From assembly GCA_965153455.1 (NCBI GenBank), contig OZ234493.1, forward strand, positions 11,894,213-11,958,212: a DNA stretch of 64,000 nt. The letters are read 5' to 3'. The notes below the pieces were generated by a model, which did no database searches, was not told where the DNA came from, and saw nothing but the letters and a program-made list of their open reading frames with translations. Position 1 is the stretch's first letter, and every line of letters starts with the position of its first letter. This DNA comes from Sphagnum compactum (taxonomy: Eukaryota). Below, one piece after another: positions 320 through 61,238 of the stretch. Both the position numbers and the translations under genes were made by a program.

Positions 320-720
320 TTTGGTCCGGTCCGGTCCATTCCGTTCGACATTTGTCGCCATTTCATCCAACGCCCGTCCCAGTTCCGTCCGACGTGTATC
401 GTCGTTTCGTCTGACATCCATCCCGATTCTGTTCGACATTTGTCACCATTCTGTCTGATGTCCCTCCTAGTTCCATCCGACGTTCGTCCCAGTTTCGTCC
501 GACGTCCGTCCAATTCTGTCCAACGTTCGTCACAGTTTTGTCAACGTCCATCCGTTCAATTCTGTCTGTTTGACCCCTTTCATCCACCGATGTCCATCCA
601 TAGACGTCCGTTCGTCCAGTTATATCTATCTGGCCCTTTCCATCCACCAACGTCCGTCCAGAAATGTCCGTCCACTAACGTTCGTCCGTCACCGTTCATC
701 CTTGTCGACACACCATATTC
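320..720. repeat. CpG-rich degenerate (CGTC/CCGTT/CATC)-type low-complexity repeat upstream of the Gypsy gag
   Basis: Dense recurrence of cgtccgtc, ccgttcg, tcatcca and gacgtccg words. The overlapping ORFs on both strands are repeat artefacts. Confidence 0.6.
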
Positions 721-1321
721 TTCCAATCGTATGTACTACGTACATACGTATCCGATACCGTATTCTTCAAACCGTATGTTGTGTTAGAATTTTGTAGCTA
801 GTGCTTTGTATTGCTACAAAATTTTGGGGCATGTCTGCCCCTTTACTTGCCATGGTATGAAATTGACCTTCCTAATGACCACCTGTACTTGTATATTCTG
901 ATGTGTTTTGAGCTTATAATCTTCAGGTTGCAGATACTAATTTAGAGGTGAAGATGGTGAAATTGCGAATTCCTGACCCAGGAATGGATCAGAGCAGCAT
1001 AACATCATGTGGGCAAGACAGTTGGCAAGTACTGCACCCACTCAGCCAGAACCAAGGTATCAATTACAAAATAACACACAATCATTTGAGTCGATTTCTT
1101 TGAACTCGCGATCTTCACGACAATACCATCAAGCGTTTATAGCACCACCATCATTTAGTACAAGTCCTACTAGGAATTCAGGTTCAAGTTACACTACGTC
1201 AACGATACATCAAAGTCCATTTGGAGGGTTTAATCAGTGGGGTACGCCTACTGCCGCACCAACTCTCACACCATCACTGTATATTCCGCTCCAAATCGTT
1301 ACCTCTACACCCATATACACC

Positions 1322-2440
1322 ATGGAGGTCAGTAGTTCCTCTGGGAGAATTGAGAGTTTAGCGGAAGGCCAAGTACCATTTCTTTGAGGGAGTTCAAGGC
1401 AACTTTCTAAACTGTGGTTTGTGAATTGGAGCTCAAGTATGGCGTTAATTACACCGAGGCGTTCGCATTCAAACAACTGGCCCGTTATGTGCACTATGAG
1501 GATTGGATGTCTACGAGCAACATTTTTCGAGGATTTTTGGCGTCACCCAAATCCCCAATTCAACTTATGCCACAGCCATCACCACCCCCTCTCAAGCTGC
1601 ACTACAAGCTGCCATTGCACATCATGGGACTATGCCCAATAATCCAGATCCAGTACCTACTTCAGTAAACCTTCCTCCTCAATAACTCATTGATGCTACC
1701 GCAAACATTCCTCCCGCCATCAATGCACCAGCTTTTACTGATCGAGTGGGGGAATCCTTTCGAATTTTTGAGCTGGAATTTTTTGTTAAAAGTTTTGAAA
1801 AAATTCTGCAGCTCGCCACCATCTCTCGGCAAAAGGATGAAACCCTCAAGATGTTCTACAGGAGGCTTCTCAAGCTCAAAGAGAATATTCAGAGCATCAC
1901 AGACCTAGAAGCTACCCATCGGTATCTTCGTTCATTGGAAGGTACTCCGACACTCCATGCGCAAGTTTTGCAACGAATTTTTTTTAGAATTTGGAAACTC
2001 ATACACTTTGTTGGATGTGTACAACATTTCTGAAAAGCTAGAACTAGTTCATGCACATTATGAAGCTAGTACTATGAGGCTTCCATCACATTCAAGGCCT
2101 CAGCCTCCACTAGATCATCGCATTCTTCTTTAAGGGCTAAAGCGGTGCACTCGGTTACACCCATCTTACCTTCTTGCAACTACTATGGCAATCTTGCCCA
2201 CAAAGCTAGTGAGTGCAACATTCCTTCCGAGGATCTCTTTTATGATTATTGTGGGAAAGAGGGACATTAAGAAGCTGTTTGTTTTGCCAAGTTCCCGGAA
2301 CGAAAACAACTCCGATTACCATGGCAAAATCTACCACCCTCTTTCGCTACCCCTCAACCAAAAGCCAAGGCACTTCAGCCTTCCACTCAGGCTTTCCCCA
2401 CCAAGGGTAATTCTAGTAAAAATGCTAAGAAGAAATAACA
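1322..2440 (+). pseudogene. gag remnant with two degenerate zinc knuckles
   Basis: Fragments include 'RQKDETLKMFYRRLLKL' (resembles the retrotransposon gag Q..E....Y..R motif) and CNYYGNLAHKASEC / YDYCGKEGH*EAVC (CX2CX4HX4C with C>Y changes). Confidence 0.75.
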
Positions 2441-2939
2441 CAATGCTGACAAGAGGGAGGTGCTTCAAGCCCATGCCATTCAAGTTCAAACTCTACAAAA
2501 TGAACTCGAATCATTTAGGGCCCAACTTGTGAATCTAAAAGGCAAGTCTTTCCAACCAACTAGTCATGCTCAACCTGTACAGGGTTCAGGATCACGGGAG
2601 GGACCTCCTAGGTCGTTCTATGGCCTCTCACACAATGCCATGGTTGGGGAGTACATTCTTTCCAATGCACACAATTCTAGTCTCACACCAGAATTTGTCA
2701 CTTTTTTTTACCCTTCCTATTTCGTGGCACAAGAGGCTAGTGTGGCACCCAAAGTTTCTGCCACTAGGCAGGTAATTCAGACTAATGGACTCACATCTGG
2801 TTCAAGTCCTATTACCAGGGTTAGAAGAGCTCGAGCAGTCATGCCACAATCTTTTCGTCCTCTTAACACGGAAGAAGAATGCAACTTGTTGGCGAGGGGG
2901 GAGGAGACTACTACACCACAAGTTGCTAGGGCATCAAAT

Positions 2940-3460
2940 TTTAGTGGATTTTCGAAGGTGGTGCCTAGTGAGAGAACTTCCATTGCCACCGGAGTCGCCA
3001 TTGTCGACAATACTAAGTCAGCAATCTACGTGGGAGGACATACACCCAAAATGGTACTTTTTGATACAGGTGCCCAACCAATGATTCTTGGAGTTCAATT
3101 TGCCAAGGAGATGGGGATGGTCGACTCCAAAGTATGGAAATCTATGTGGCAAATTCGCACTGCTAGTGGGAACATAGAGGAGGTACTTAGGGAGAGCTCG
3201 GATTTGATTACACTTAATTTCAATGAAGGTATAGATCAAGAGCTTTGCCTACGGGTCAGATGTTTACTCACCAATGCCACTAGTTATGATGTGCTCATTG
3301 GGCAAAAGGCCATGTTTTCACCAGGTTTCACAATTGACAACTGGTTCGAGCATGCGTATTACCGAGTGGATTGGGAGACTGATGGCCACCACCTAGGATA
3401 CATACCCCTTGATTTTTATGGGAACCATAATCCTATGGCTCACCATTGTATGTTCAAGGA
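2940..3460 (+). pseudogene. Retropepsin-like aspartic protease domain
   Basis: MVLFDTGAQPMILG, IRTASG and YDVLIG within ORF 2460-3683. Confidence 0.85.
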
Positions 3461-3699
3461 AGCACACACCATTTCCTATATCCAACAAGCTAACCAAGAG
3501 TGGATAGAAGGAGATGAAGAGGAAACAACTTACGTCCAAGCTACTAAAAGCTTGAGGGTGGTTCCTACTAACATTCAACACGGACCAGAAGTTTACAGAT
3601 GTTCAAAACAGCCCATGAGCCCTTGGTCAAAGCTCTATCTAGTTTTTAGAACATGGAAAGCTATGGCAAACCGATCAAGCTAGTACTTCGTCAGCTAAT

Positions 3700-4580
3700 C
3701 ACCTGGACACCGCCTAAGGAGGGGATTACATTACTAGAGCTCTTTGGTGGTATTGGTATAGGTCTCGAAGCCCTACTACAGTTAAGGATGGTGGTTTAGA
3801 GATATTGTTACGTAGACATTGATCCTATTGCAAGGCAAGTGGCGGCATCGAGAATGATGGAGCTCACAACCAGATTTCCACAATAGTTTGCAACCACTGC
3901 ATGGAAGGCTAGTTTCACTTTCTTGCCCTCTGACATACAATTAATTCAAAAGAAGCATATGGAATTACTTGGCCCCATGGACCTCATCATTTCAAGTTGG
4001 GAGTGTCAAGGATTTTAGCGGTTGGATTTGGAAAAGACTTATATGACTTTAGATCCGGTCTCTTCACGGACATGGTACGTGTAGTTCCAGGAGCACTACA
4101 CGCTAGTCCAACATTACCTTGGAGAGCCACTCCTACTCAATGCGGCATAATGCGGTTCCTATGCGCACCTGCTGCGCAACTGGTGGACCAACCTTGCACC
4201 ACTCTTAGTTCTACAGTTGGCTCTGAGATACACCATCAGAGACCCCAACCTGTAGGTTTCTCACATATTAGATGATTAGAGCTCCTGCCAACTAGTTACC
4301 AAGCAAGAGAAACCTCTTTGGTTTCTTGCAAACACAATAGGAAAACAAATAGGTGTTTGGCCCACCTTTGTCTCCTTCCCAAGAACACACACCTTTCAGG
4401 GAGATGGACCAAACCTGGTGTATCGTCATGCTTCAGCCACTTGGGATGAACCAAGCCCAAAAGAAAGAGAAACGGCTATGGGGTTCCAAACTCACACTAC
4501 TAGTCACACCCTGGTGACTAGATTGGAACATAATGTTCTACTGGGGAGAAGCATGGACCTGAATTCCCTTACATGGTTGT
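3700..4580 (+). pseudogene. DNMT3-like C5-cytosine DNA methyltransferase domain embedded in the retrotransposon pol
   Basis: Frame +2: LLELFGGIG (motif I, 3731-3757), YVDIDPIAR (II), SDIQ (III), MDLIISSWECQGF (IV, 3977-4015). Frame +1: GKDLYDFRSGLFTDMVR (V). Frame +2: EPLLLNAA*CGSYAHLLRNWWTNL (VII-VIII), ERETAMGF (IX, 4463-4486), LLGRSMD (X, 4538-4558). Motif VI (ENV) is not seen and was probably deleted near 4080. Confidence 0.88.
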
Positions 4581-4899
4581 TGGTAACCTGTATACTCTTT
4601 CAAATGTACACAACACTAGCATTGATTCAATCAGCTTGCAGTTCTGGCAATGCGACTACATGGCACCCCGACCAAGTACAATTGCCTATTTTCAACACTA
4701 CACTTCACTCTTAGTGATGGGGGGGAGGAGGTACCATGTAATTTGACTCAAGTTGTTTCTGATACACCTAGAGGTACATCAGCTTCTGGAGAAACAATTA
4801 CAACCTTCTACAAATCTGCGTAGTTAGATAGTGGAGAGCCCAATACACCAGGTTCTTCAAACACACTTTCCAACTCCATTCCATGTGTTTCCAACTACC

Positions 4900-6280
4900 C
4901 TTTCGTTATGGGGAACCAGCTCACCAAGAAGGAAAGAAACCAAGTCACAAACTTGCTAATTAAGTATAAGAATGTGTTTGCATTCTCAATGAAAGACTTA
5001 GGTAGGTGTAAGACCATGTAGTTTTTAATAGACTTTACAGATAAGACACCCATCTATCGGAAGAGGCATAGGTTAAGCAAGCATGAATGGGAACTGGTAG
5101 ATGAAAGATGCAAAGAGCTCCATGAGGCTGGTCTCATTCAGCCATCAAGTTCTAATTTCGCAGCCGTTATAATAATGCCAGCAAAGAAGGATTCAGCTGG
5201 ATTATGGACTGAGAAAAGGATGTGCGGGGATTATAGACCTTTGAACCTGGTTACACCTCAGGACAGGTACTCTATGCCCATCCTTGAAGAACTGTTTGAT
5301 AACATTAGAGACTTAAACATCTTCACAATTGTGGATTTGAGGCAAGGCTTCAACCAGATTGTGTTTGCTGTGAAGGATCGCAAGAAAACGGCATTCCGTG
5401 GAAGCAACAAGTTGTGGGAATGGCTTATGATGCCTTTTGGATTGAAAAATGCACCTGCCTTCTTTCAACAAATCATGGACCAGGTCCTTGAAGGGGCAGA
5501 TTTCCTGAAATGCTACATAGATGATGTCCTAATGCATAACAAGGGACTCTTGCAGCGCTTAGCTCATCTTGAAAAGTTATTCAAGAGGCTCCACGTAGTC
5601 AATATGAAGATCCATCCTAAAAAGTGTGAGTTTGTTATCACCTCAGTAGTCTACTTTGGTATTATGGCTCATTGGGCCAAAATAATAGCCATTTTGGAGA
5701 TGCCCAATCCTATTGATGTTCACACTTTTGAGGAGTTTCATCAGACTATGTGATTACTATAGGATTTATGTCCAAGACTTCAGTACTATTGCTCATCCTC
5801 TCTATGCATTATTAAATAAGTATGTTGCTTGGACATGGAGTGAAGAAGCTCAGGAAGCTTTCAACACATTCAAGGAAAAGCTTTCAGAGTTCCCCATTCT
5901 GAGAAGACCTGATTTCAGCAAGGTTTTCATTCTACACACTTATTAGAGTGTTCTTGGTATTGGTGTTATTCTTGGCCAACTTGATGAGAAATGCAAGGAA
6001 TATGTTATCGCCTATGCATCCTGAAGCAACAACAAGGCTGAGAGCAACTACTCTTCATACAAGGTTGAGTGTCTTGTTGTATGGGTCGTCATACATTTCA
6101 GGCCCTATCTTTATGGCACCAAATTCACTTTGTATACCGACCACTAACCTATCAAATGGTTGACAACCAACGACAAACGTACTGGTAAGTTAGCTCGTTG
6201 GGCGCTTATACTTCAGGAGTATGAGTTCAAGGTTATTCACCGACCTGATATTACACATCAGAACGCGAATACCATGTCGC
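4900..6280 (+). pseudogene. Reverse transcriptase and RNase H of the Gypsy element
   Basis: ORFs 5175-5753 and 5713-5946 plus frame +1 continuation. Canonical Gypsy RT motifs; LRRPDFSKVFILHT, YVIAYAS, GKLARWALILQEYEF. Confidence 0.95.
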
Positions 6281-6411
6281 AGAGACCCCTCACTACCTCT
6301 GAAGATTTCTCAGAAGCCAAGCAAGACTTTGACTAGACTCCAGTAGTACATGTATCTTATGCATTTAGTTATCTTGCACTACTGTAATGTAACCTGGTTG
6401 AGCATCCCATT

Positions 6412-6838
6412 GTGGATATATGGGAGGACTTGGACACTCTGAGATTTCTTCAACATGGGGAATACCCTCCCCAAGTTACATTAAGTCATCGGGATTGCAT
6501 ACAACAACAGTCCAAACGCTACTCATGGAGGGACAATCACCTTGTCCGATGCTTACCACAAGGCGACAAAGTGGTTCCTCCACCACATGAACGGCCTGGT
6601 CTTATTCAGAAGGTACACTTGGAGCTTGGACACTTTGGAGTTAAGCATATTTATAGCCTTCTCGCTCCTCATTACCATTGGAGAGGTATGTATGTTCAAG
6701 TCCGAGACATCATTGCTAGGTGTGAACAATGTGATAGAGTGAAAACTTCCTTCTCCTTTTGACAACTCACGCTTTCTCCACTCCCTATTCAGGGCATGTT
6801 CTATCGTTGGTCATGTGATTTAGTTGGAGAGTTACTAG
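6412..6838 (+). pseudogene. Integrase N-terminal zinc finger and start of the catalytic core (truncated)
   Basis: VHLELGHFG...CEQCDR (HHCC), then LSPLPIQGMFYRWSCDLVGEL (first catalytic Asp). The sequence switches abruptly to AT-rich unrelated DNA at ~6838. Confidence 0.9.
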
Positions 6839-6899
6839 ACCCAAAAATCAAAACAATATTAAAAATATAAAAACTACTTGGTTTTCATTCAAATGTTCA

Positions 6900-7850
6900 A
6901 TTCCTTGGCTAAATTCCAATTTCAACACAAGCCTTATTCCATTCTTGTTTTCCCTTCCCAGATTTCTTAAGCTAAGTGATGCACTTTTGCAAATCTACTT
7001 GAACAAACATAATGGAAACATTTTTCAAACTTTTGAAAACCTTTTCCTTTATTATGCCATATTAATGTGCCTTTGAAAAAGCGTGCCCAAAACAAGTTCC
7101 TTGGAAACTTTCTTCCAACCCAAAATATTCACAGCTTACAATAAATTTCAATGTAATAATCATGGTATTGAGATTAAAACCTTCATTATTGACATAGGCA
7201 ATGATTTTTTTCCTTACATCATACTTATCCAACAAATTTGTCAAATTTTTAGCCAATGTTTATCTTATAATTTTTGTGGCCTCAAACAAGCCAATAGTTT
7301 TGGTTGCTAATCATTCCCCAAAAAAATAATGACTAATGCAAACACATCATAAGCTTTTTGGGACATCTAAAGATCAAAACTAACGATTGCATAATGACAT
7401 TCTACCAATGTAAGAAAAACATACAAATGACTCATTTTCTCCAATAGCCTTAGTAATATTTCTTATGTAATTTTTTTTTGGAAAGGAAATTTAATTTTGA
7501 ACATAATTTCAGAACCAAACGTTTCAGCCAAGTATTTTCCATAAAATAAATTAGTAAATTATTTTTGATAATCAAAAGACCAAAGTTCTTAAGGAATTAT
7601 TTCTATGGCGCATCCTCTTTTTGGAAAGAATCGTTCACAACAAATTTTTTTTTGAAATTGACCTTCCTTAAATTTATATTTTTTTTGCAAGTTGTCTTTC
7701 CTCTATTTGCTTCAATGAATTATTCATTTCTTCAAAAAAATTTGCAATAATAGTATGATATATATTCACATGTTTTTTAAAAGAAGTTATTCCATTTCTT
7801 TTGCAATAAAAAATTAATCTTTTCTTACTTGTGCTTTTGGATTACAATTA
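6900..7850 (-). mobile_element. hAT-family transposase remnant (DDE core)
   Basis: Minus strand reads ENTWLKRLVLKLC, VSFDL*MSQKAYDVFALVI (first D), IIAYVNNEGFNLNTM (second-D region) and FQGTCFGHAFSK (CxxH). Boundaries approximate. Confidence 0.72.
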
Positions 7851-8459
7851 TTGTATTTTTATGACAAAATATACAATGCATGATTTGTGCATTTTCAAGA
7901 TCAATTTCCCTATTGTCATTTACACAATATTAGCCCCAACATAAAGACATTCTTCTATGAAGTTTTTAAATTTTCTTTGAACATGCAGCTTTTTTAAGGT
8001 TCATGTTTTCATTAATTCTTCACTTTCCATTTTTTCATTTTTGCTTACTTTAGTTTACACACTAAGATTCTCTTCAAATTTGTTTTCCATAATTACATCA
8101 TTCATGCATATTTCAATTGTCTCATCATTAAGGCTTATTCTATTTTCATCTTTAGAAGATCGATCCATCAACAATTTTCAAAAAAATATGTCCAAAACTA
8201 ATAGAAAAAACAAATACTCTATACCAAAAAACTCATTTTTTACAATGAACAAATGAGAAAATGTACAAACAAAGTAAGACATTTCCAAACAAAGCAGGTA
8301 AAGGTTTAAGAAACGGGGCTTAGGGTTTTAAATTAGTATTGAGGTTTAGAAATGGGGTTCAAGGTTTAGAAAATTAATCAAAAATCACTTCTCTTTGTTT
8401 CTCATCATGATTATAAAAAAAAAACGTATTAAGGGAGGGTAATTGTTTAATTTAAAATA

Positions 8460-9220
8460 TTTTTTAAAATATTAAAATCTTGCAAACAAACAAAAATAAA
8501 GAAAACATTAGAAATAAACAAAGAAAAGAAACTAGAACGAAAAAACTAGATAATAAACAATAAACATACAAAAATAAACGAAAATAAAATAAAACAAAAA
8601 CGAAAAAAAGAAAGGAAAGGAAAAGAAAGATTTCTCTTCTCATAACATAAGAGGAAAAAAACACAAAACAACTCATTTCAAAATTTAAACAAAAAAAAAG
8701 AAAAAAGAAAAAAAACATATCAAAAAATATTGATGTTCCAAGCTCCTTAACCTATAAAAATGAAATAAAAAGGGAAACACCAATTGACACAAGGCAAGCA
8801 ATGAGTAGTGAAGCAACAAGGGGGAGGGAGTGACAACATGTAACTTAGAAAAAGTGCGAAGCAACATGACAAGGTGCGAAGGAACAAACAAATAGCAAGG
8901 CAAAATGCAAAGGAAGGAGCAAGCAACATCAAGGGGAAGTGCGAGAGAAGGAACATGCAAGCAATAGGGCGAAACACAAAAGAGAGAGTGCAAAGCAACA
9001 AGACGAAATAAGAAAAAATAGGCATGAAGCAGAGGGGGGGGAAAGAAAGAGAGAAAAGAAGGAAGGAAGGGGAAAAAAGAAAAAAAAGAGAGAAAGGAAT
9101 TAAAGGAAAAAAAAACCTTAAGAGAAAGAAAAAGAGGGAGAGAAAATAACATGAAAAAAACAAAAATGAACACAAGATGTCAAAAATTGAAAGCTTGCAA
9201 CACAAAGAAGAAACCAACAC
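8460..9220. repeat. Purine-rich (A/G) low-complexity tract
   Basis: Poly-A/AG runs and short gcaa repeats. The F/L/S-rich minus-strand ORFs are compositional artefacts. Confidence 0.7.
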
Positions 9221-10726
9221 AAGAAGATTTTATGCGTTTTTGGAACCTTTTGTAACTATTAAACACTCAGTTATCATGTGTGACTGGAGTTGAATACAGC
9301 ATTGAAAGTCCAGATTACCATCACCAGATCAACTTGGCCTCACTTACAAGAGCAGAAGTAAGAAGTTCGTGTTCATTGAGTTGTGAATCACTCACTTCAA
9401 ATTCAGCCTTCAAGTCCATGAACAAGATGGAACGAAAAATATTGTTTTGCATTGACAGTTTCAGTGAGCATGTGTGCAACCTTTTGCCTTGTGGGACTTT
9501 GATTGTCATTCATGCCACCAGCATTTATACCTAGATGTCATTACATGTAGAGAGAAGAGAGGCATTGCTTTTACTTGGAAGATTGCAAATCCTTTTGCGG
9601 AATTCAAAAACGCTGTCATCAAAGTTTTTCAGACTATATTGTGAGCATGCTTTCAGGCTTTCAGTGCAAAATATTTCACAAACACATTCTCATCCCTTTG
9701 AAGTCATTTATTTTGTAATTGAGTTCATGAGAAAAATCATTGAATGCCATAGTTTAACATTCAAAATCTGCACCCTCAAGAAATCGTCTCAGCATCATGG
9801 AATCCCGAAAGAAGCCATGGATACTGACCTGTAAACTCTTGGAAATTGATCTCCGATAAACCTTTGGGTCTTGCATTTTGATGCAGATATAACCAATCTG
9901 CAGAACTCACAGGTTACACTCAATAAAAAATCCAAGCTTTTCCTACTTGTAGACTCACAATAAGCACCATAACAGATGCACAACGGTGCTCAAATCCCCA
10001 GTCATCATCAACAGGCAGGCCTGAATTTGCCTGGGTAGTGCATTCAGCTCAGGAATTCAAACTAATCTGCAAGTGCGGTAGCTGTTTACAAAAGTTAACA
10101 AACCTTGCCTGAATTATTGACACACAACATGGATTGTTGGTAAAGCTTCTTCCCTGGCAGAGATGGTTTTCAGCAAAAAATTGCCTTAACGTGCAGGAAT
10201 AGATGCACCCAACAAGCATCCTTTTCGCTGATTTGCTATGATTTCAATTGGGGACCCTGAGTATTCACAATTCCATGTAGCTTTTGACATTGCTGGTAGC
10301 CTGATTCGAACGTCTCAGATGTAGGCACCCAAAGGAAAGAGAGCCCATGGAACAAAAACTTGCTCCTGTTGTTCCATTTTGTTGCATCATCAGAAGCCTT
10401 AAGCTGGATGGACACCTTATTACCACAGGCATTCACATGATCTTCCATCTGGATAACATTATTGTACTCAAGGACAGAGCTCAAAATGCAGCCTGAACAA
10501 ACAAATGGGTGAGACATTATCACCGATGACAAAAGGGAAATGCTCCTGCTTTACTAGCCAGTCTGGTACCAAACTCTCCACTATTGATACATTTGATCTA
10601 TGAATCATGCAGCCAAGTAGTCATATGTGCAAACAATCCACAATTGGCACAAAAGCCGAGGCTCTGGTCAGCCAAAATTATGAACAAGGGAGGAGGATGA
10701 ATCAGCCAAAGCCTGATTAACTATAA

Positions 10727-12278
10727 CTACCAAGAATGAGAGGCACGTTGCATATCTCTCAAGAGAAGGGTATAGAGAAGCTCGTTCCAAGTGTCAGGAA
10801 CCCCAGGGAGGCACCAATGGCTGCAATCCATGGCACGGAAAGTGGAAAAATTGAAAATATGTGCATCCCGTCGGTAAGCTGACAACCTTGTGATGTCAAG
10901 GAGTGTTGCTTTTACTTGCAATGATCCCCAGAGTTGCTCAAGAACTTGTGCTTGTGATGACAGCCGGATATGCGATTCATTGAAAATTGGAGCCGTCTGA
11001 ATAGGACATTCGGTTTTGTGCTTCTTGGGTTCCTCCCAGTCATTCAAATGTCCCCATGAATGGGGTTCATAATTGCGGAAAAAAACATGGGTTTTGTTCG
11101 TGTCAATGTACTGTTTGACCCAGTCCGCCCATGTTGCAACAGCAATTCGGTATGCTGACTCCATGTCCATGCCAAGGCGGAGAGATGAACCCACCTGAAA
11201 GTAGCGCCCACTGTCCCCACCCCACCTCTTGTCATTTCCACTACAGACTGTCAGCGCACCTTCAATCATCTGAAATTGGTAAGAGCAAAACACCCTCAGA
11301 ATCTTTTTCTTCTAAGACCAAATGTTGAGACCAAATTTAAATGAGAAATGCACAGGGTGAAGTGTGAAACGCACAATCGATAGGTCTTGGCGGCGGTCCA
11401 CCAGTGACCAGAGTTGAAGACTAGGACATTTGCAGTCTGCCACTGAGAGCTGGCTGACTCCAAGGTATCCAGCTTCAGGGTGGCCTTGACCCTCTTAGGT
11501 GCATGCTTTGGAGGCTGCCCAATATGCACGAGCCATCGAGATCGGTAATACTCAATTGTCACATTGAACCCTGGGAACAAGACAGCAAGGTGTGGTGTTG
11601 TCTTTGTAATGGTTTTTCCATGAATCTCTTTCACTGACCATTTGTCATGGACTCCAGTCATTAGCAGGCAAACAAGTGACTCCCACTGTGTTCGACCCAT
11701 GGAGTCTCCTACAAAAGCCACTCGTTGGTCCCTTAACCTCATGAGCATACTCATTGCATCAAACCTGAATGTGTGAATCAAAAGACAGCAGGTAAATCCA
11801 TGTTCTATGTTGTGAAAAAAAAAAGCAAATGATCCACACATGCATGCACAGAAAAGAGACAGACAGACAGACACAGACACAGAGTGTGTGTGTGAATGCA
11901 AAAGAGAAGAGAAGCTAACCTTGGAATATTGCAATCAAAGGGCTGCCATCGCCAGTTCCGGTATGTAAGATTCTGTCGTCCATTGTTGGGGCACTGAAAT
12001 CCTTGCTCGATGAATGGGCACTCAGTATACAGTGGATAAGACTCATCAAATACCCAGCTGCCATTGAAAAGGTTGCATTCCAAGGGCACAATGGAGGGTC
12101 TGATGAAGGAAGGAAGAAAATTAGCCTCCAAGGCAGCAAGAGAAGGCCCAAGGTAAATGCTGTCAAGGATGAAGAGAGATGCAATGAAAAAGAGCGTGAA
12201 AATCGAAAGGATTATGGAGATTGGACTACAGAGGAGGCTGGAGTGGCGGACTCCTCCTTCAGAACTCCACAGTGACAT
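10727..12278 (-). CDS. TBL: TRICHOME BIREFRINGENCE-LIKE (PMR5N + PC-esterase) polysaccharide O-acetyltransferase; exons 12278-11920, 11764-11375, 11210-10727
   Basis: N-terminal TM segment, CNLFNGSWV...CPFI...WRWQP, FVGDS, NSGHWW, DCSHWCLPGVPDTWN (DxxH). GT-AG introns keep the frame. Confidence 0.93.
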
Positions 12279-13990
12279 CGTCTCCAGTTGTTCTTCGCCA
12301 GGATTCTCTTCCTCTTCTTCCTCCCCGCCATAGATGAGGCCCCATTTCTGTCCGCATCTGCAACCACCGCGGCTCCTCTCGCCCCGATGCACGTCTCCCA
12401 AACCCCGACCCGCAACAACCTACCATCCGCAGCAAACCACTAGGTACCTACCTACCGCACCCGCACTTCTTTCCCACACACACAACTACCTACCCGCGAC
12501 AACCCCACCAGGTACCTACCTCCCCTGCACTTCTTCGGCACAGACAACAACATACCCGCAACGACCTACCTACCTACCTACCTACCCCCCAAATGCACAC
12601 ACAATAAAAGTTTTCCCTTTTGGGAGAAGAGGAGGGACCCCCCACAAGGCCTCTAATTATTATACGGTCGTGCCTGCCTGCCTGCCTACCTACCTACCTA
12701 CCCTGGCAAGTTCAACAATTTCAGTGTCCAATAATAATTATTTTGTTTTAAAGATTTTATGATGAAAATTGGAATATATACCAAAGTTTTTCTAAGAGAT
12801 TTTTTATTTTCTTTCACACGATTTTTTTTTCAAGTGAAGAAACTTAGATTTTAAAAAAAAATTATTTTGAAAATTCCATGTCGAAAACTTGAATATATCA
12901 TCCCCAACTAATTTTTCTAAGAGATTTTTAAATTTTCCTTCATATAATTTTTTTTCTTTGAGATTATTTAATTTTCCTTCATATGATTTTTTTCTCTTTG
13001 AGATTTAAAAATTTTCCTTAACATAATTTCGTTTCTTTGAGAATTTTTATAGAAATTTTCACATTTTTTGGAAATAATATAATTAATGTTGATGCTGCCA
13101 TGGTTGGGGAGGGGGCATGGATTTTTTGGGGGGGGGGGGGGGGGTTTTCTCACAATGTTCTCAATGATGTTCCACAAGTTACAAATGTGTTTGTTCCCCC
13201 CATGATGTTCCTTAAGTTCCCAATGTGTTTCCATCCATACCGCACTTTTATCCAATATAATTTGCTCAAAGTTCTCCCCTTCTAATATTGGTGTGCCAAA
13301 GGTAGAGGCACTCCATCTTCACATAAAAACTTTTATTTTGGGGGAGTTTCAGCTTTTCTTTTTTGTATGGACCAATCAAAATGGCTCATTACACGCCCTA
13401 AATTAAAAAAAACTTGAGAATTACCCATTTAATTACCTAATGAAGATTTTTAAAAATAGGTACCCTAACTCTTATGACAAATAAGTTTCACACTAGGGCT
13501 TGATTTACAAGTCCCAACTATGAGTAGGAATCCTATGTGGCTATATATTTTTTGGTTCATGGGTCGGACTTAGGCAAGGAGTTGTTGGGTAGAGCAAAAC
13601 CCAACTCCAAAGACAAAGTCCCAACCAATTTGTTTTAGTAAAATAATAATAAAAGTAGCTTGAGACGGTCCACTCAATGTACGAGTCTTTCTTTTTGGCA
13701 TGAAATTGAAAGTTGGCGGGGCTGGCTGTTTTTCTTCTTCTTCAAGTGTGTCGGAGTTAGAGCAAAAGGTTTAGTTAGGGCAATTTTTAATTTTTTCCAT
13801 GTGAAAAGATGAAAGGTTTTTCACAAAATTCTTTATGTGTACACTTTGGAAGAGTGTGTTGTTGGTCTGGAGAAATTTTTTTTCCCTTACAACAAGTATA
13901 GAAAGGATAATATGGTGCATTTTGGTCCATTTGCATTTCAAGGTGAAGATAAAAAAAGTTTCAAAAATAATTAATGTATGCAGATGATTC

Positions 13991-14854
13991 AAAGTGAGTA
14001 TGAAGAAGAACCATCATCATCATTTCAACACTTTGCTTGTATAGTACAAGTTGTTGAATGATAACATACTCACAATGATATGTATATGTTTTACTACTAT
14101 AAAAGACAGCAAGAATCACTAGGGTAAACTGGCCCATCACCAATCACCTGCTTACAACCGAACACTCATTTATATCTTCATCATATGTGCTTCATTTTGA
14201 GTGATTTAAAATGTTATGGGAGTGCAACCTCAAACTCTAGAAATCATCTTCGAAGTGCAAAGGAAAATGAGTAATGAAAAAAGTGGAGCATGAAGAACCA
14301 CCATCATCATCATTTCAACACTTTGCTGGTATGTTTACAAGTTGTTGAATGATAACATGCTCACAATGATAATGTATTACTACTATAAAAGACAGCAAGA
14401 ATGACTAAGGGTAGACTGGCCCATCACCAATCACCTGCTTAGTAACAAACACTCGTTTATATCTTCATCATATGTGCTTCATTTTGAGTGATTTAAAATG
14501 TTATGGGAATGCAACCTCAAACTCTAGAAATCATCTTTGAAGTGCAAAGGAAAATGAGTAATGAAAAAAGTGGAGTATGAAGAACCATCATCATCATCAT
14601 TTCAACACTTTGCTGGTATATTTACAAGTTGTTGAACGATAACATGCTCACAATGATAATGTTTTACTACTATAAAAGAGAGCAAGAATGATTAAGGGTA
14701 GACTGGCCAATCACCAATCACCTGCTTAGTAACGAACACTCATTTATGTTTTCATCATATGTGCTTCATTTTGAGTGATTTAAAATGTTATGGGAATGCA
14801 ACCTCAAACTCTAGAAATCATCTTTGAAGTGCAAAGGAAAATGAGTAACGAAAA
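13991..14854. repeat. Tandem array of three ~288-bp units
   Basis: Units start at ~13991, 14281 and 14568 (aagtg(g)agYatgaagaa...catcatttcaacactttgc...gtgcaaaggaaaatgagtaaYgaaa) and are visibly highly similar. Confidence 0.95.
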
Positions 14855-15623
14855 TAATAATAATAATAATAATATTTAAATTCCAGCTACAAAATGCGTT
14901 TTTTTTTTTTTTTTTCCTTCTTTTTGGACCCCTCTTACTTTCAAACCTCATAACTTTCTTATTTCAAACCCCTAATCCTAACCCTTTTTCTTTTTTTTTC
15001 TGAAAAGGTGTAATTTCATCCGGTGGTCCTGAGCCGTTGGATCGGGAGTCGATGGGCAATCTTGACGGTAGCAGTGCATCTTTCGACCCTGTGTGTTTCT
15101 ACGAATTCTGTAGATCTTGGATTCTACCATTGTGTCACGTAGAATTTTCAGGAAATCTATGATTTCTTTGTTAATTTATGGGTGCTCTCTGAAAGGCATA
15201 TAATAAAAAGCGTTTTGTGTCCCACAGTGTGCACGGAGGGAGGGAGAGGAAGTGAGGGAGTGAGAGAAAGAGAAGAGTGCTTTGTTTCTGGTTGCTGTGC
15301 TCCCGAAAGATTTGATGGAAGATTGCTTTCCATTGGCTCGTAAGGGAAGAATAAATTGACTCTCAAGGTTGTCGGGAATCGTAAGTGACAGATTTCAAGC
15401 TCAGTCGTGTAGGATCGAGGAAGTTGTTGGCGGAAAGACAGTGTGACGTATTGTCGTTTCGACAATTGCGGATTCGTGGAATCGTGTAAGGGTTCTCTTG
15501 AACCCCGGAGACGGACTAGAGGGGTGGGACGTCAGTGGTTCAATGTGTTGAAGATCAAAGGAACTGTAAGGTTGTAAAAGGAAAGAGGAGACGAAGAGGA
15601 GGAGAGGTGAAGGGAGGAGAGAT

Positions 15624-18600
15624 ATGTCGTCAAGCAGCGGGTTGACATTTAAGCTGCATCCTTTGGTGATAGTGAACTTATCGGATCATTATACGCGCAT
15701 CAAGGCACAGAGTGGATCTTCCTCGCCGCTGCCTCGAGTATATGGCTGCGTTCTCGGCGTGCAGACTGGGCGCACTGTGGAGATTTTCAACAGCTTTGAA
15801 CTGCACTACGACGCCACTCAAAATGTCCTGGACCGCGCATTCTTGGAATCAAAGCAAGAGCAGTGTAAGAGCCATGCGGTTGTCCTTGCGAAGAAGACCC
15901 TGAAGTTAGGGCAAGCAGTGATCGTTTGTTGCCAATTTTTCTATAGGGTTAGGGCTAGGGTTTGCAAAGATTTGGGAGCCGAATTGGAGGTAATTTATTG
16001 CCATTTTTCATGATCTCAGAATGTTTACTGTTCTCTGCATCTGCAGGACCAGATTGTGTGCTCGGTGTCCATGTGCCTTTCTGGATACCATAGATGTCTT
16101 AGCTCAAGCCCTGTGGTCAGTTTAGGGTAGGGTTAGTGAGGGCTCACGAGGTTTGTGCTCAGGCTGTTTGCCCAAGAGCTTCCATCTTCAGTGATGTGAG
16201 CTCTGTAATATAGAAAATCCTTGTGGTGTTATTTGCTGTTTACTCAGAAACTTGACTGAAGAATCAATTAAACATCTTGTTAGTTGTCCTGTGGTTTTGG
16301 TTTCACAGATAAGAAGGTCTTCCCCAAGTATGATGTACTAGGCTGGTACTCAACTGGCAGTGACATTCAGGACTCAGATATGCTCATTCATAAATCTGTA
16401 AGTTTCTTTCTGCTTTCATCCTGACACGTTCTTTTCCAGCTTTCGTGCAACTGTTCGAAAGATTCATCTAATGAAGCATTAATGAAGGGTGTGCTGCAAT
16501 TGTTGCAGCTGACAGACATCAATGAGAGCCCAGTGTACTTGTTGCTCAATCCAGCCATCAACCATGCACAAAAGGATCTGCCCATTGCTATTTTTGAAAG
16601 TGGTGGGTACTTTTACTCTTGAGAACAGTTGTGTTTCATCCATCACTAAAGGGAATTTGAAGATTTCATAATTGTTTGGTTGTGTGTTGCACACAGTTCT
16701 AGTCCCTTTTGCCAAGAAATAACTGCCATCATCTAATTTGTCTAAGTAAATTAGACAAATATCTGTATGTTCCATATTTCGATAGGATCTGAAAATTGCT
16801 TCTCCAGTATCTGTGAGTTATGTGTGACCAGTGTATGTATGATGGGGTTTTTATCTTTCCAGAAATAGTGTTGCTCCAGTTTGATGTTGGACCCTGACTA
16901 GCATTCCCCCAACAACTGATTGCATGCAGAGCTGCATGTTATTGAGGGGGTGCCATCCCTTATATTTGTTAATGCAAGCTACACCATTGAGGTGATCTTT
17001 ACCTGTAGTTTTTTGCTCCCTTGTGGACACTTTCAAGTATTGAATGCTAAAAATCAGCTCTGGATCCTTGATGCATGATTTTTTATTGAACTGGTATTTT
17101 GGCACACTCAAGCACCAGAATGATTCTGGACTAAAGACACCTTATACCTGAATATGTCTGAATTTAAAAATAGATTGGGTGGTTTAAGACTCTTATTGGA
17201 ATTTATATGTGTTGAGGTATACTTTATATTTGCAGCGAATGGTCCAAAAATGGATTTCTGTGTAACCCAACCCTGCACTATGATGGTGAGCCTCTGCAGG
17301 ATATCATGTTCTTGAACTTATCAGGTGGAATTTGTGGATGGGTGTAGACAGTGGAGGCAGAGCGGATATCAGTGGACCATGTGGCACATATCAAGCCTTC
17401 CGATGGAAACTCAGCTGCTACACAGTGTAATTTCTTATCATTTCTTAGCCAATGTACTCTTCAGGTTGCAAACTGAGAGAACACTTTTAGACTGCTCTGC
17501 TAAGAGAATCAAGTTGCTGGTTGTGTAGTTCTCAGAGTTACAGAGTTTTGAGGTTTCAAATTAGAGACTTTCTGACTGAATTGTCATGCCTGCTACTGAT
17601 GGGAGAGCTTTGTGGCCCCCCTGAAGGAAATGCAGTGGCAGCCCATTTGACAGGTATGCACAGTGCCATAAAGATGTTAAACAGCCGCATCAGAGTTCTA
17701 CACCACCATCTTGTGTCTATTCAGAAAGGTATGTGACTCACCCTGTGTCACCATATGCATTCATCCACTCAAGTGTTGTATGACATTGTGCCATGAGCAT
17801 GTGGCCTTTTGGAGATACACTTCTTAGTTCCTTTCATCAGTAGACAATTGAGCTCTCGTACTGATTATGAAGATTGTTTGTACAGGAGAAGCTCCATATG
17901 ACCATTCACTTCTACGGCAAGTTTCCAGCCTAATTCGCAGACTACCTGCAATTGATTCTTCAAGATTTCAGGATGATTTTCTCATGGTATGTACTCATTT
18001 GAAGTGGGTTGAGCATTGGTTGCTCTGAGTAAATTCCCTGAGGAGAAAAAGACTAATCCTTCTGGACCCATTTTTGTGATTGCTGAAGTCCTAAAAATCT
18101 CTATTTTGCAATTATAGTCTGCATTTAACTACTCAACAGGCTTGTTTGACTGATAGGAGCATTTTTCTCTTGGTTGACAGGAGTACAATGATACTTTACT
18201 TATGACTTACTTGGCCACCATTACAAAGTGCTCCAGGTATGATCGAGTAGTGAATTGCAGCTCTGTAACAGCCCACCATGGTAGTCATCTTGTTATGTAA
18301 CTCCACGTATATGGTTTTTGGTGCCACTAGTAATTTTTGTATGCAACACAAAATCTTAAGCTCGGGCCTAACAATTGACAACCAAATTGCTTCATCATGT
18401 TGGATATTCTGAAGCTGAGGGGTGAAAACAGTCCATATTCATATCTTTAGAATGCTGTTTATTCATCTGGACAATTTAAGAATGAGACTTTTGATTGAAG
18501 GCAAGGATCCCACCTTACAAGATGTGGTGGAAGAAAGGAGAAATTTCCGTAGAATTTAACATAAGGTGTTCTAACATAGATGTGGCTGCCTGTTTCATGC

Positions 18601-41575: not shown

Positions 41576-43397
41576 TCATAATGCTCTTGCTGACAATGGA
41601 ACAGGCACATAGGGAGGAGCATCTTTGAATCGCTGCGTCAACCATGATTGCTGTGGATCAATGAAATCTGGTGATAGAAATTGAGCAGCATCAGAATCTT
41701 GCAATTGGCAAGCCCATGAACAACGCTGAGATTTGTTGCTTCCAGGCCCTGAGCACTTGTACTCTACGTAGCATGCTGTTTTCTCATTGGCTCTGTCATT
41801 CCAGTTGTTCCAACCCACAGGCAGAATGCAAGTATCCATCCAAGTGTAAGCAAAAATGACTCGTGCACATGGTGCCCATGGCCGGCCAAGATGCATGTAC
41901 GGAGCACCACTGCCAATGCCTGTAATCACACATGTCAAAAACACAAAGCCTGTGGTCTCATTCGCATTTCGACGCTGCTGCGCTGTGATGAAGCCATTAG
42001 ACTTGCAGTGGATATGGCAGTGCTCCAACAGCACTTGCCCATTCCCAAAGATGAAATCTACACTTCCCTCAATGTAACAGTCTCTGAAGTAGTGCCTGCC
42101 ATAGTGCAGATAAGCAGTATCCTGCCATCCCAAAAACCGACAGTTATAGAATGCACACCGATCTGCAGTTACTCTGATGGCCACTGCTTGACCTGATCCT
42201 TGAGGTGCGCCATTTTCAAATGTGAGTCCTTGAGCTATGAAATCCTCACCCTCCACAATCACTGAGCCACATGCAAACGTCCCTGTCCCAATCACTCGTG
42301 ATGCCTGGTGATGTTCAATGTTTGTAGCAGTGTTGCTCCATGTAAGAATCGTGTCATGCGCATTTGCTCCCTGCACTTCCACCAGGTCCAAAGACTCAAA
42401 AGCCCAAACTTTCACATGTGCCATGAACTTGCACACAAAATATGATTGAATGATCACAGGGTGCATTTGCTCTCATTTTGAGTCATTCCACAGGTTCAGG
42501 CTATCTCTAGAACCATGGTACAGATCCAAGCATGTACTAGTACATCATCTGGACATGAAAGACTCAAGATGTCATAATTATGTCTTGTGCACTTGGGCAG
42601 CATTGGACCTCCATAAAGTTTTAAGATTCAGCTGCAGCCAATGCAAAGACTCAAACCAGAAAATGCAATGCACATCATAATTAACCAACTGGGAACTAAA
42701 GACTTCAACTCCTTGACTTGGTGAGCCACATTGCCTTGTTTATGGCCTTTAAGAAAGGTGTACACATCCTACAAGACAGGAGCTCCAAGGGTGGGGAACA
42801 AAATTCACTCAGGATTGTCAGGGTACAGAATGTTATTCTTCTTTACAAGAGGAAGAATCACACCTGCAAATCTGCAGTTATGAACCCTAATCCCAAAGGC
42901 AAGAAAGAAATAATTCCTTATTCTACCATCAACGCATGACTGAGAGCTGTCTTCACGACTCATAGGGCGACTTTCCTACTGCGAAGGTGGGATTTACACA
43001 TTTCCTTCAACCTTCAAACCCGATTTTTATTGCAACTGGAATAAAGCTCCCTGTTCAAGATTCAGCACAAAGGCCTGCTGCAGTTTGAATCCAGAACCGG
43101 CTTACACAAACGGAGACAATGAAGCTTTTCTTACAACAACCAAGGCTGCTTGGCAACTGTTGACCATCTACCCACACCCCAGCGACGGTCCAGACCCCTT
43201 TTTACCTGCAACGTGATCAGATTCTTGGTCTTGGGGACGTAAATTGGCTGTCGGTACACTCCAGCGGCAATGCTGATGACAACTCGCTGCGTATTGCAGA
43301 GCGGAACCGCGTCGATCGCCGCCTGCACTGTCAGGTAGTGTCCACTGCCGTCCTGTGCCACACGCACCACCTTCCCAACGCCATGGTTTCCCATCAT
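41576..43397 (-). CDS. PME31: Pectin methylesterase without signal peptide or PMEI pro-region (PME31-type); exons 43397-43206 and 42370-41576, 328 aa
   Basis: VAQDGSGHY, GVYRQP, IEHHQASRVIGTGTF, QAVAIR, QDTAY, DFIFG, LGRPW. One phase-0 GT-AG intron. Confidence 0.93.
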
Positions 43398-56226: not shown

Positions 56227-57808
56227 ATGTAGTTATTATTTAAAATAAAATAAAATAAAATAAAATAATTTTTATAACCATTATTTGCCAAAATTTTCTG
56301 AGTTCAAAAAATCAAGTGCCAAATTTAAGCTTTAAAATTTAATTAATTATTCGACAGTTTGTTGCCAAATCCAACCATGGAGTATGGTAAAAAAAAATAG
56401 AATAGAATAAAACAAAATAAAATAAAATAAATCCCTAAGCGACATGTTCAAGGGAACTTTTTGAAAAAATTCAAAAAAATTCACCATATTTTGAGATTTT
56501 TTAAAAACAAAATTGCAAATGTTGTTGGGTAGATTTCTGGCTTTCTTCTTTTGTCGTGAAATTGCCATATTTACATTAGTTGAATTGATGATTTTTTTTT
56601 CCCCCAATAATTACCAAAATTACATTAGTTGAATCTACACTTCTTAAAACAACAAAAAAAAATCCCAAGTTTTCTTAAATTTTTTTGTTCCCCCCCCCCC
56701 CCCCAAAAAAAAAACGTTCGTTTTATTTTTCCGACTCAAATTATTATTCTCTTTTATTTTCCGACTCAATTTTATCAATCTAACTCAATTGTTTAGGTCC
56801 AGTGTTTAAAAAAAAAAAAAAAAAACTTCCTCTCAATTTTGTAATATAAAAAAAAATTGGCGAATTTTTCCAATATTTTTTACCAAAAATTACATTAGTT
56901 GAAACTACACTTTTATTTTTAAAAATAAATAAATTCCCCCAAGTTTTCTTAAATTTTTTTCCCCCCAAAAAAGAAGAAAAGATAAAAGTTTGTCCCAAAA
57001 AACATTCACAAATTAGGGTTTAAAAAAAAAACCCTTCCTTGTTTCCTGTGAAGTGGCCTAAAAATAGGTACCTACATACTTACCTACCTACCTATTTGAC
57101 CCCCTTTTTTCCTGCCTTCCTTTTTCCCTTGCTTCCTGGGCTTCCTTTGCATGATGGCCTTTGCTGTCGACGACGAAGCAGACGACGAAGGAGAAAGACG
57201 AAGAAATCGGAGAGAGAGAGAGACACAGAGAAACGGAGGAGGAGGACGGTGTAGAGAGGAGCAAAAGCAGGCGTTGATGACGCAATCGCGGCGTCCAATA
57301 GGGCCCCATGTACACAAGATCAAACCGGAGAAGATTTGTCCGCTGAAGATTTGTTCAGAGTTTTCACCAGGACCATGCATTACTCTCTCTCTCTTTTTCT
57401 TCAATCTTCTTGTCTAGAATGAGAGTTTGACTACCTAGTGGCAGTTTGTTTGTTGGAGAATGGATTGCTTCAGGTGACGACGATTTGAATTAAGGTTCAT
57501 GAATCATGGTTTTTTCAGCTAGGGTTTCGGGTATATGTCGACAGTGAGAAGGAGGAGGAGGAGGAGGAGGAGGAGACAAGGAATCGTTTTGTTCTTTTTC
57601 TTCGGGGACTGTTTGAGGGAGGCATTTGTAGGATGAGAAGAAGAAGAGCTTGAAGATTTTGCTATTTTCAAGAGTTTTCTTCTTATTTTCAAACGTATTT
57701 GCATGTGTTCAGAGTGAGCATTTGGAAGATTGCGGGGTTTTGTTTTCAGAGAGGCTCTTTTTCCATTTTTTTTTAGAATGAGAGATTGAAGAGAAGGGGA
57801 GGTGAGAT

Positions 57809-60800: not shown

Positions 60801-61238
60801 GGAGCACTAACAGACCAGGGACTGGCTCATATTGGAGAGTATGGGCGCAATCTCAAGTGGCTGCTCTTAGGTACCACAGGGGAAAGTGATATGGGTCTTG
60901 CCAGTCTTGCATATGGATGCCAACAACTGGAACGCCTGGAAGTACGAGACTGTCCATTTGGGGAAGCAGGCTTTGCTACTGCAGTGGTGGCAATAAGTTC
61001 CTTGAAATATCTGTGGGTGCAAGGCCACCACCGAGTCAGTGAAACAGGGGTGCAACTTCTGGCCCTGTCTCGCCCATGTTTGCACATTGAAGTGTACCCT
61101 GGTGCCCAGGGACAACCTGGGCAGCTCTTGGCATACTATGCACTAACAGAACCACGCACTGATGGTCCCCCTGGGATGAAGGTGCTTGTCTCAAACCCAC
61201 ACAATCATCAGCAGGACATACTTCCATGTATTTTATAA
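57809..61238 (+). CDS. COI1/TIR1-family F-box LRR protein, COI1-like but divergent; exons 57809-58329, 58631-59117, 60456-61238, 596 aa
   Basis: F-box (DRAAVSLVCRQWRRVD), LKGKPRAA, DWGGYAEPW, LHKCSGFTT, CKELRRLRVE, DLPLDDGV, LYLRQGALTD, YLWVQG, LLAYYAL. The three-exon layout is typical of the family. Confidence 0.92.
58385..58575. repeat. ~42-43-bp minisatellite, ~4.5 copies, in intron 1 of the COI1-like gene
   Basis: tacaagtctgtgacatgaatccatttgaacaagtgcaagaaa units starting at ~58388, 58430, 58473, 58516 and 58558. Confidence 0.92.
60120..60260 (+). repeat. Dispersed structured repeat, copy 2 (intron 2 of the COI1-like gene)
   Basis: Aligns by eye with the reverse complement of 63645-63780 (ttgggagct.atgaagt..gtggg...ggcagct.agtcactgct...ggtgatgg...tgtgagt...tcacaaggttatgacc.cactt). 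Confidence 0.8.

Follow-up and report, generated by a model that had tools for sequence, protein, structure and literature searches.

A 64,000-nucleotide stretch of the Sphagnum compactum genome (contig OZ234493.1, positions 11,894,213 to 11,958,212; hereafter the window, with all feature coordinates given as positions within it) carries the remains of a retrotransposon with a cytosine methyltransferase (MT) of its own. We found that positions 760-6835 are a dead Gypsy-DNMT3 copy, truncated at both ends and with internal deletions. The copy very probably belongs to a high-copy bryophyte Ty3/Gypsy family of the KnitGypsy-Dnmt3 lineage, whose intact pol would read protease (PR), DNMT3-like C5-MT, reverse transcriptase (RT), RNase H (RH), integrase (INT) and PHD finger.

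An earlier note on this DNA, made from the letters alone, had described a C5-MT segment between the protease (DTG, 3063) and the RT of a Gypsy pol, broken by stops and frameshifts and marked by eight motif strings. Three-frame translation of 3600-4760 recovered all eight strings in canonical order, and tblastn and Pfam placed the segment between the same two domains. Alignment of 3707-4660 to the intact MT open reading frame (ORF) of L066, a near-intact relative (87.7% identity; 837/954 aligned nt), bore out the breakage as well, with in-frame stops at 3797, 3884, 4148, 4253 and 4277 (n = 5) and a 1-nt deletion after 4016. The note was right that this copy is dead, but it overlooked the missing ends of the element and a loss of about 80 nt within the MT. 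At 4078-4086 the window holds 7 nt in place of 87 reference nt, so that codons ~125-154 and motifs V-VI are lost, among them motif VI of L066 (IENT) with its catalytic Glu. Motif VIII has changed too, at its first Arg (AHLLRN, vs AHRLRN in L066). As loose ends at 4016 and 4086 in both DNA and RNA runs show, other copies carry the sequence that the window MT is missing. Likewise, reads of other copies continue beyond 6835, where the window element breaks off. By blastn against L066, the window copy is missing repeat A at the 5′ end and, at the 3′ end, everything from the integrase core through the PHD to the B-A-B repeats. A search for long terminal repeats (LTRs) within the window found none; the copy is without both ends.

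We compared the read-through translation of the window MT (P0001, with X at stops) with 1.84 billion cluster representatives in an exhaustive HMMER search, in which the number of relatives was 918 at E ≤ 1e-3 and fell to 452 at E ≤ 1e-10 and to 87 at E ≤ 1e-30; polyproteins of 1500-3400 aa were numerous among them. By this measure, the homology of the window MT to its relatives is far beyond chance. Against PDB sequences, phmmer with P0001 gave 25/25 matches to DNMT3A/B/C in three collinear stretches (best E 0.0062). A word-indexed search aimed at longer proteins gave three relatives, namely P0002 (820 aa, MT-RT-RNase H), which is 74% identical to P0001, P0003 (1214 aa, gag-PR-MT) and P0004 (676 aa, PR-MT). 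In metagenome contigs from JGI, at least 586 stretches encode relatives of P0002, of which 80 loci were taken for detailed study, and one public DNA run contained 34,916 contig pieces on window positions 3000-7000 at ≥85% identity. Differences in this run were mostly transitions (C>T at 239 and G>A at 234 places, vs A>G at 102 and T>C at 93), an excess consistent with old repeats whose methylated cytosines have been deaminated.

The most complete pol was that of L066, where a single frame of 1828 codons, interrupted by 3 internal stops, spans positions 6696-12179. Pfam found DNA_methylase, RVT_1, RT_RNaseH, Integrase_H2C2, rve and a C-terminal PHD in that order, and the protease was mapped by phmmer. 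The PR-DNMT-RT-RH-INT pol that the earlier note had proposed is therefore encoded in a single frame, backed by P0002, P0003 and P0004, with the PHD finger as an addition at its end. The note had also suggested looking for intact copies with LTRs and a continuous pol; L066 supplies the near-intact frame, and its repeats are no ordinary LTRs. Taken across these copies, the MT is an integral, conserved feature of the family at a fixed place between protease and RT, and not a one-off capture.

The MT passed the PF00145 cut-off (22 bits) in L066 (40.3), P0215 (36.6), P0002 (36.5), P0004 (32.4), P0003 (28.5) and P0217 (28.5), and the best ESM Atlas matches of P0002 residues 1-340 were PF00145-bearing clusters at 0.88-0.90. 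We aligned 43 MT domains with L066 as the first row (alignment A1; 30-43% identity to L066). All rows (43/43) had both the motif IV catalytic Cys (C100) and the motif VI Glu (E142); N143 was present in 40/43, and the motif VIII arginines R182 and R184 in 42/43 each; the motif I glycine (G15) occurred in all 38 rows with a residue at that position (5/43 gaps). Motifs run I, II, IV, VI, VIII, IX, X, collinear with DNMT3A, and the circular permutation of the DRM type was not seen. When the A1 profile was searched against PDB sequences, the top 29 distinct matches were DNMT3A/B/C (E 5.6e-24 to 1.4e-16), collinear across motifs I, IV-VIII and IX-X. Tobacco DRM (9e-13, partial), M.HhaI (2e-9) and Arabidopsis DRM2 (3e-9) followed, DNMT2 ranked below DNMT3, and DNMT1 was not among the PDB matches listed. 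An AlphaFold2 model of L066:7920-8954, built with the A1 alignment, reached a pLDDT of 94.7 and a pTM of 0.92. All 30 Foldseek matches listed for this model in the PDB (to rank 49) were DNMT3A/B/C (best E 5.3e-19), with a target-normalised TM of 0.78-0.84 to MT-domain chains, so the structural comparison with DNMT3A that the note had called for came out in its favour. Given the profile ranking, the collinear motifs and the fold matches, the domain is a non-permuted DNMT3-type MTase and not a captured DRM, as the note had argued.

Self-comparison of the loci revealed an unusual set of repeats. One copy of repeat A (~300 bp) lies at the 5′ end and a second ~8.5-9.7 kb further along, with 83-92% identity between the two, and repeat B (~175 bp) stands directly before and directly after the second A, giving the layout A1-internal-B1-A2-B2. 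This layout was complete in 13 loci (12 distinct), and truncated contigs held parts of it (BAB in 8, AB in 9). Full elements include L066:3558-12873 and also those of L022, L025, L032, L037, L050, L059, L060, L067, L069 and L076. Full units measure 8.6-10.2 kb (9316 bp in L066), start with TGTCATG and end with CACGACA, and have a G-rich tract directly before B1. The flanks upstream of A1 and downstream of B2 vary among loci. A 4-bp target-site duplication (TSD) was exact in 7/12 distinct loci (one after a 1-nt boundary adjustment by eye) and carried one mismatch in 4/12; 1/12 gave no resolution. Whole A...B-A-B units were thus inserted by a DDE-type route with 4-bp target duplications. The B1|A2 junction reads GACA-NN-TGTC and resembles two joined termini. 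The coding region has the Ty3/Gypsy order PR-RT-RH-INT with a DDE integrase (RVT_1, RT_RNaseH, Integrase_H2C2, rve); two identical flanking LTRs of the TG...CA kind were absent, and TGTC...GACA ends were found on the whole unit only. The element is in this respect an odd mix of DIRS/Ngaro-like repeats and a DDE integrase. The integrase C-terminus, which in chromoviruses carries a chromodomain, here bears the PHD finger (L066:12027-12161, residues 1778-1822 of P0229). A writer of DNA methylation and a likely reader of histones are thus combined in one element, and algal elements of the order RT-RH-MT-INT-PHD have a PHD as well.

To place the family, we mapped domains in stored proteins by phmmer, which separated two architectures. 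Type A, gag-PR-MT-RT-RH-INT, comprised 26 proteins, including the complete 2188-aa P0076; its named members are Klebsormidium nitens GAQ93235.1 (P0152, gag-PR-MT, partial) and four Closterium clusters with PR-MT or MT-RT. Type B, (PR-)RT-RH-MT-INT-PHD, comprised 87 proteins, among them Haematococcus lacustris KAJ9527864.1 and Cymbomonas tetramitiformis KAK3250090.1. Trees of the MT (129 rows) and of RT-RH (53 rows) were built from quick searches, are unrooted and include no MT-less elements. In the MT tree, one branch (SH-aLRT 98) held 21 rows on one side, namely 17/17 type A and 4 of unknown order, with moss, K. nitens and Closterium sequences among them; 80/84 type B rows lay apart, and 4 stood beside the PR-MT-RT group. 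In the RT-RH tree, 6 type A rows split from 47 type B rows (SH-aLRT 100), with no K. nitens RT among the rows. The DNMT and RT trees that the earlier note had proposed therefore both draw the PR-MT-RT type as one branch.

The reference element for this lineage is KnitGypsy-Dnmt3, described by de Mendoza et al. (2018) as an intron-less DNMT3-related domain in a Gypsy pol and placed with Dnmt3 (main text of PMC5890265). By the shared domain order, the MT clade and the A-internal-B-A-B repeat layout, our family belongs to the same lineage as this charophyte element, and a separate land-plant invention, to which the note's wording comes close, was not upheld. The note's placement of the family in land plants did hold. 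The window element sits in gene-containing land-plant DNA, as judged from the COI1, TBL/PC-esterase, pectinesterase and JAB/MPN genes around it, and relatives occur in two other bryophytes. Judged in this way, the host is most likely a moss distant from Physcomitrium, with which the Sphagnum match and the family fragments in moss-metagenome runs agree. A Sphagnum magellanicum gene model (P0220, on an 18-Mb contig) is 93% identical over part of the MT. In the liverwort Calypogeia fissa, P0217 (on a 66.6-Mb contig) encodes PR-MT with 69% identity to P0003 over 490 ungapped residues and passes both PF13975 and PF00145. By phmmer mapping, P0220 (CY35_15G039600) is a spliced mix of PR, MT and PHD pieces and likely a mis-annotated dead copy. 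A further protein, P0219 (455 aa, 42% identical), bears a label that assigns it to a Candidatus Obscuribacterales metagenome-assembled genome as a DNA cytosine methyltransferase; its 2.4-kb contig is probably eukaryotic and mis-binned.

We then asked how the MT had varied among copies, taking the singletons in a set of 68 copies as the neutral standard for variants shared by at least three copies. The ratio of nonsynonymous to synonymous variants (N/S) in the MT was 1.83 for shared variants and 3.76 for singletons (ratio 0.49; p = 2.8e-6). Corresponding values were 1.75 and 3.68 in the linker between MT and RT (ratio 0.48; p = 0.0041) and 1.52 and 3.85 in RT-RH (ratio 0.39; p = 4.6e-10). This pattern suggests that the MT was under constraint while the family replicated.

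In the mechanism that we propose, the MT would be made as part of Pol and then either be freed by the protease or act while fused. Its targets for de novo cytosine methylation may be the cDNA or fresh insertion of the element itself, and perhaps also host DNA close by. The likely context is CG, by analogy with other retrotransposon DNMTs, which are reported to methylate CG de novo and for which self-methylation has been proposed (PMC5890265, abstract). The C-terminal PHD finger probably reads histone H3 tails and could thereby steer integration. None of these activities belongs to the window copy.

Several observations weigh against this reading of the family and its enzyme. The window MT itself gave no match to PF00145, either as four raw ORF fragments or as P0001. 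Pfam is blank on this copy because it is too decayed, and relatives were used for that reason; the PF00145 comparison suggested in the earlier note thus succeeded for the relatives, L066 included, and failed for the window copy. Among plus-strand ORFs of at least 500 aa in the 80 loci there was 1 only, L066:7920-10460 (P0002), and when copies were aligned over MT-RT-RH (n = 69), the other 68/68 had at least one in-frame stop in MT codons. Present-day activity is doubtful because nearly all sampled copies are dead and the A1 and A2 repeats are just 83-92% identical. Three metatranscriptome runs, of which two bear the label moss metagenome and one plant metagenome, contained contigs that match the family across all 30 bins, but contigs from RNA libraries are no proof of transcription because such libraries can contain DNA. 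The N/S test is open to bias from segmental duplication of dead copies and from recurrent mutation. Our own trees are without host DNMT3 or DRM, so the case for DNMT3 ancestry is built on the PDB profile, on the ranking of fold matches and on the K. nitens tree already in print. The residue before the catalytic Cys is normally Pro, and this Pro-Cys dipeptide is near-universal among such enzymes. In A1 that residue was E in 21/43 rows and P in 19/43, and the moss family has Glu (WECQ). Finally, methylation activity of the family MT is something that we infer by analogy.

The change in motif IV from Pro-Cys to Glu-Cys also lends itself to another explanation, in which the MT is a pseudo-enzyme that leaves DNA unmethylated and persists for some non-catalytic function, such as oligomerisation or the binding of DNA or SAM. 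Set against this are the Cys and the motif VI Glu in 43/43 rows, the motif VIII Arg pair in 42/43 and G15 in 38/38, together with the de novo CG methylation reported for other retrotransposon DNMTs (PMC5890265, abstract), and we consider a pseudo-enzyme unlikely. A different possibility concerns origin, namely that a bryophyte Gypsy gained a host DNMT3 independently of the charophyte element. Retrotransposons have captured DNMTs repeatedly (PMC5890265, abstract), and as our trees include no host DNMT3, a similar host gene could formally have been captured a second time. Yet the gag-PR-MT-RT order is identical in K. nitens, Closterium and moss, the MT and RT-RH each form one branch (SH-aLRT 98 and 100), and the moss repeat layout matches the DIRS-like layout of KnitGypsy-Dnmt3 given in a figure legend of PMC5890265. 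Independent capture in land plants is in our judgement distinctly improbable.

Least credible of all is that the MT is a one-off nested fragment, with a piece or retrocopy of a host DNMT3 gene lodged inside a single Gypsy copy. Host DNMT3 genes do exist in bryophytes (PMC5890265 and PMC11540031), and the window MT is broken and without a Pfam match. However, at least 586 stretches carry this domain in the same position, it lies in one frame with PR and RT, and Klebsormidium, Closterium and Calypogeia elements have it too. The earlier note had reasoned that a domain flanked by its own TSD or introns would be such a fragment; neither was found, and L066 homology runs straight through the MT. Those stretches, the unbroken homology to L066 and the one-frame L066 pol refute the nested-fragment explanation, to which we assign next to no probability. 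A dead copy of a bryophyte family that carried its DNMT3-like MT as a standing part of pol is the reading that we retain.

The features of the window are listed in Table 1. At the gag-protease linker deletion, P0003 residues 536-696 and P0004 residues 100-250 had no tblastn match in the window. PF13975 scored below its cut-off on the window protease (E 0.0011, 20 bits). Upstream of gag, arrays of 22/26/44/88-nt tandem repeats occupy 166-690 and show weak likeness to the 5′ untranslated region of some copies. Past the truncation point, two minus-strand ORFs (7062-7259 and 7674-7841) looked transposase-like by eye and gave no Pfam match. At 14121-14981 a 287-nt unit unrelated to the element stands three times in tandem, the other two copies being 95% and 67% identical to the first.

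Table 1. Features of the retrotransposon copy and neighbouring host genes in the 64,000-nt window
Feature	Position	Strand	Evidence or detail
Diverged 5′ untranslated region with 22/44/88-nt tandem repeats (probable; no firm assignment)	330..760	+	Weak blastn matches (69-81%), upstream of gag in L043, L059 and L067
Retained part of Gypsy-DNMT3 element	760..6835	+	Matches positions 1134-7594 of the 9316-bp L066 element; blastn of L066:3558-12873, four collinear HSPs, 85-89% identity
gag, degenerate, several frames	1322..2940	+	tblastn of P0003 residues 1-536; ORF translations
Zinc-knuckle-like CNYYGNLAHKASEC in gag	~2170-2240	+	ORF translations
~447-bp deletion vs L066, gag-protease linker	2940..2950	+	L066 element 3157-3604 without window counterpart
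Aspartic protease, DTG at 3063-3071	2949..3662	+	tblastn, 71-77% to P0003 and P0004
Decayed DNMT3-like C5 cytosine MT domain	3707..4660	+	Motifs, PDB sequence matches, alignment to L066, tblastn
MT motifs I, II and IV, frame 2	I LELFGGIG 3734-3757; II YVDID 3809-3823; IV SSWECQGF 3992-4015	+	Three-frame translation of 3600-4760
MT motifs VIII, IX and X, frame 2	VIII AHLLRNWWTNL 4163-4195; IX ERETAMGF 4463-4486; X LLGRS 4538-4552	+	Three-frame translation
Frameshifted stretch, RSGLF at 4051-4065 in frame 1, then ~80-nt deletion	4017..4086	+	Pairwise alignment to L066:7920-8954
Reverse transcriptase	5022..5753	+	PF00078 E 3.3e-23; 84% identity to P0002
RNase H	5728..6144	+	tblastn to P0002 residues 682-820, 86%; PF17917 and PF17919 match P0002
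Integrase N-terminal zinc-binding domain	6388..6762	+	PF17921 E 4.5e-15
TBL/PC-esterase gene	10727-12419	-	
JAB/MPN domain protein gene	15570-16013	+	
Pectinesterase gene	41576-42472	-	
COI1-type F-box receptor gene	57806-61238	+	Last exon 58% identical to Physcomitrium patens COI1a, best named match

DNMT-bearing retrotransposons have been reported from dinoflagellates and K. nitens (PMC5890265, main text). In the passages that cite this finding, a 2026 preprint and a 2025 MBE paper refer to 'streptophytes' and leave land plants unnamed, and the relevant passage of PMC6338049 gives such transposons as absent from land plants 'such as tracheophytes'. We found no report of DNMT-bearing retrotransposons in bryophytes or other land plants in the literature searched, which lay outside most subscription journals and supplements. 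Our result extends the host range of a known lineage, Gypsy-DNMT3, and adds a few structural details that are new; it is not a new kind of element. A retrotransposon with its own cytosine MT inverts the usual view of methylation as a host weapon against transposons. Now that the lineage is seen in two groups of bryophytes, with a very high copy number in moss, there is a land-plant setting for transposon-borne DNMT3 function. For evolutionary studies, the family also offers many dated dead copies, and it is a second, better-sampled example of the puzzling split-repeat Gypsy structure.

Because the Sphagnum-type and Calypogeia elements are more alike (69% identity) than the last COI1 exon is to that of Physcomitrium (58%), horizontal transfer between bryophytes is possible. 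Taking all of this together, we put forward a broader scenario tentatively, and its parts are unlikely to hold all at once. In it, one Gypsy-DNMT3 lineage, of which the moss member at least has a PHD, would have persisted from charophytes to bryophytes and amplified to very high copy number in peat moss, leaving a 69%-identical relative in a liverwort, possibly by horizontal transfer, and its enzyme may have aided host de novo methylation. The A-internal-B-A-B layout, the junction resembling joined termini and the DDE-type target duplications would then reflect a route of replication and integration unlike that of either LTR elements or DIRS.

Among known enzymes, the catalytic domains of animal DNMT3A/3B/3C gave the best profile and fold matches to the element MT and share its collinear motifs I, IV-VIII and IX-X. 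The element MT differs from them in its low identity (~21%), in having no PWWP or ADD and in being embedded in a polyprotein; motif IV reads W-E-C-Q in the element vs S-P-C-N in animal DNMT3, and the element domain is ~60 residues longer (345-aa model vs 285-aa chains). Plant DRMs are likewise DNMT3-derived C5-MTases, of streptophytes. Their motifs are circularly permuted, with VI-X before I-V, whereas the element MT is non-permuted, and the match of DRM chains is confined to positions ~102-236 of the profile, with E no better than 9e-13.

Among mobile elements, SymbioDIRS-Dnmt3 and SymbioLINE-Dnmt of Symbiodinium are also retrotransposons with a cytosine MT (PMC5890265, main text), but their backbones are of the DIRS and LINE types, with a tyrosine recombinase or an endonuclease, and the same source treats them as independent acquisitions. 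The algal RT-RH-MT-INT-PHD Gypsy elements are closer, with a related MT (31-39% identity among rows of polyprotein length), a PHD after the integrase and a Ty3/Gypsy RT-RH-INT core; their MT lies between RNase H and integrase, whereas that of the moss family lies between protease and RT. This type B group consists of P0005, P0014, P0018, P0020, P0021, P0101 and ~80 more representatives, and chlorophytes have 0 occurrences in the main text of PMC5890265. The nearest known system is KnitGypsy-Dnmt3, which shares with our family the gag-PR-MT order, the MT branch, the non-permuted motifs and an MT in pol without introns, and which combines DIRS-like split repeats with Gypsy domains in the same manner (K. 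nitens layout from the legend of Fig. 4c, PMC5890265). The moss element has a PHD after the integrase, and the term has 0 occurrences in the main text of that paper, figures and supplements being outside the count. The present host is a land plant and not a charophyte, namely a moss, and a liverwort has a close relative of the element; MT identity between the two is ~33%. Copy number differs as well, being very high in the moss family, with nearly all copies dead, whereas K. nitens has few copies that are under purifying selection (PMC5890265, main text).

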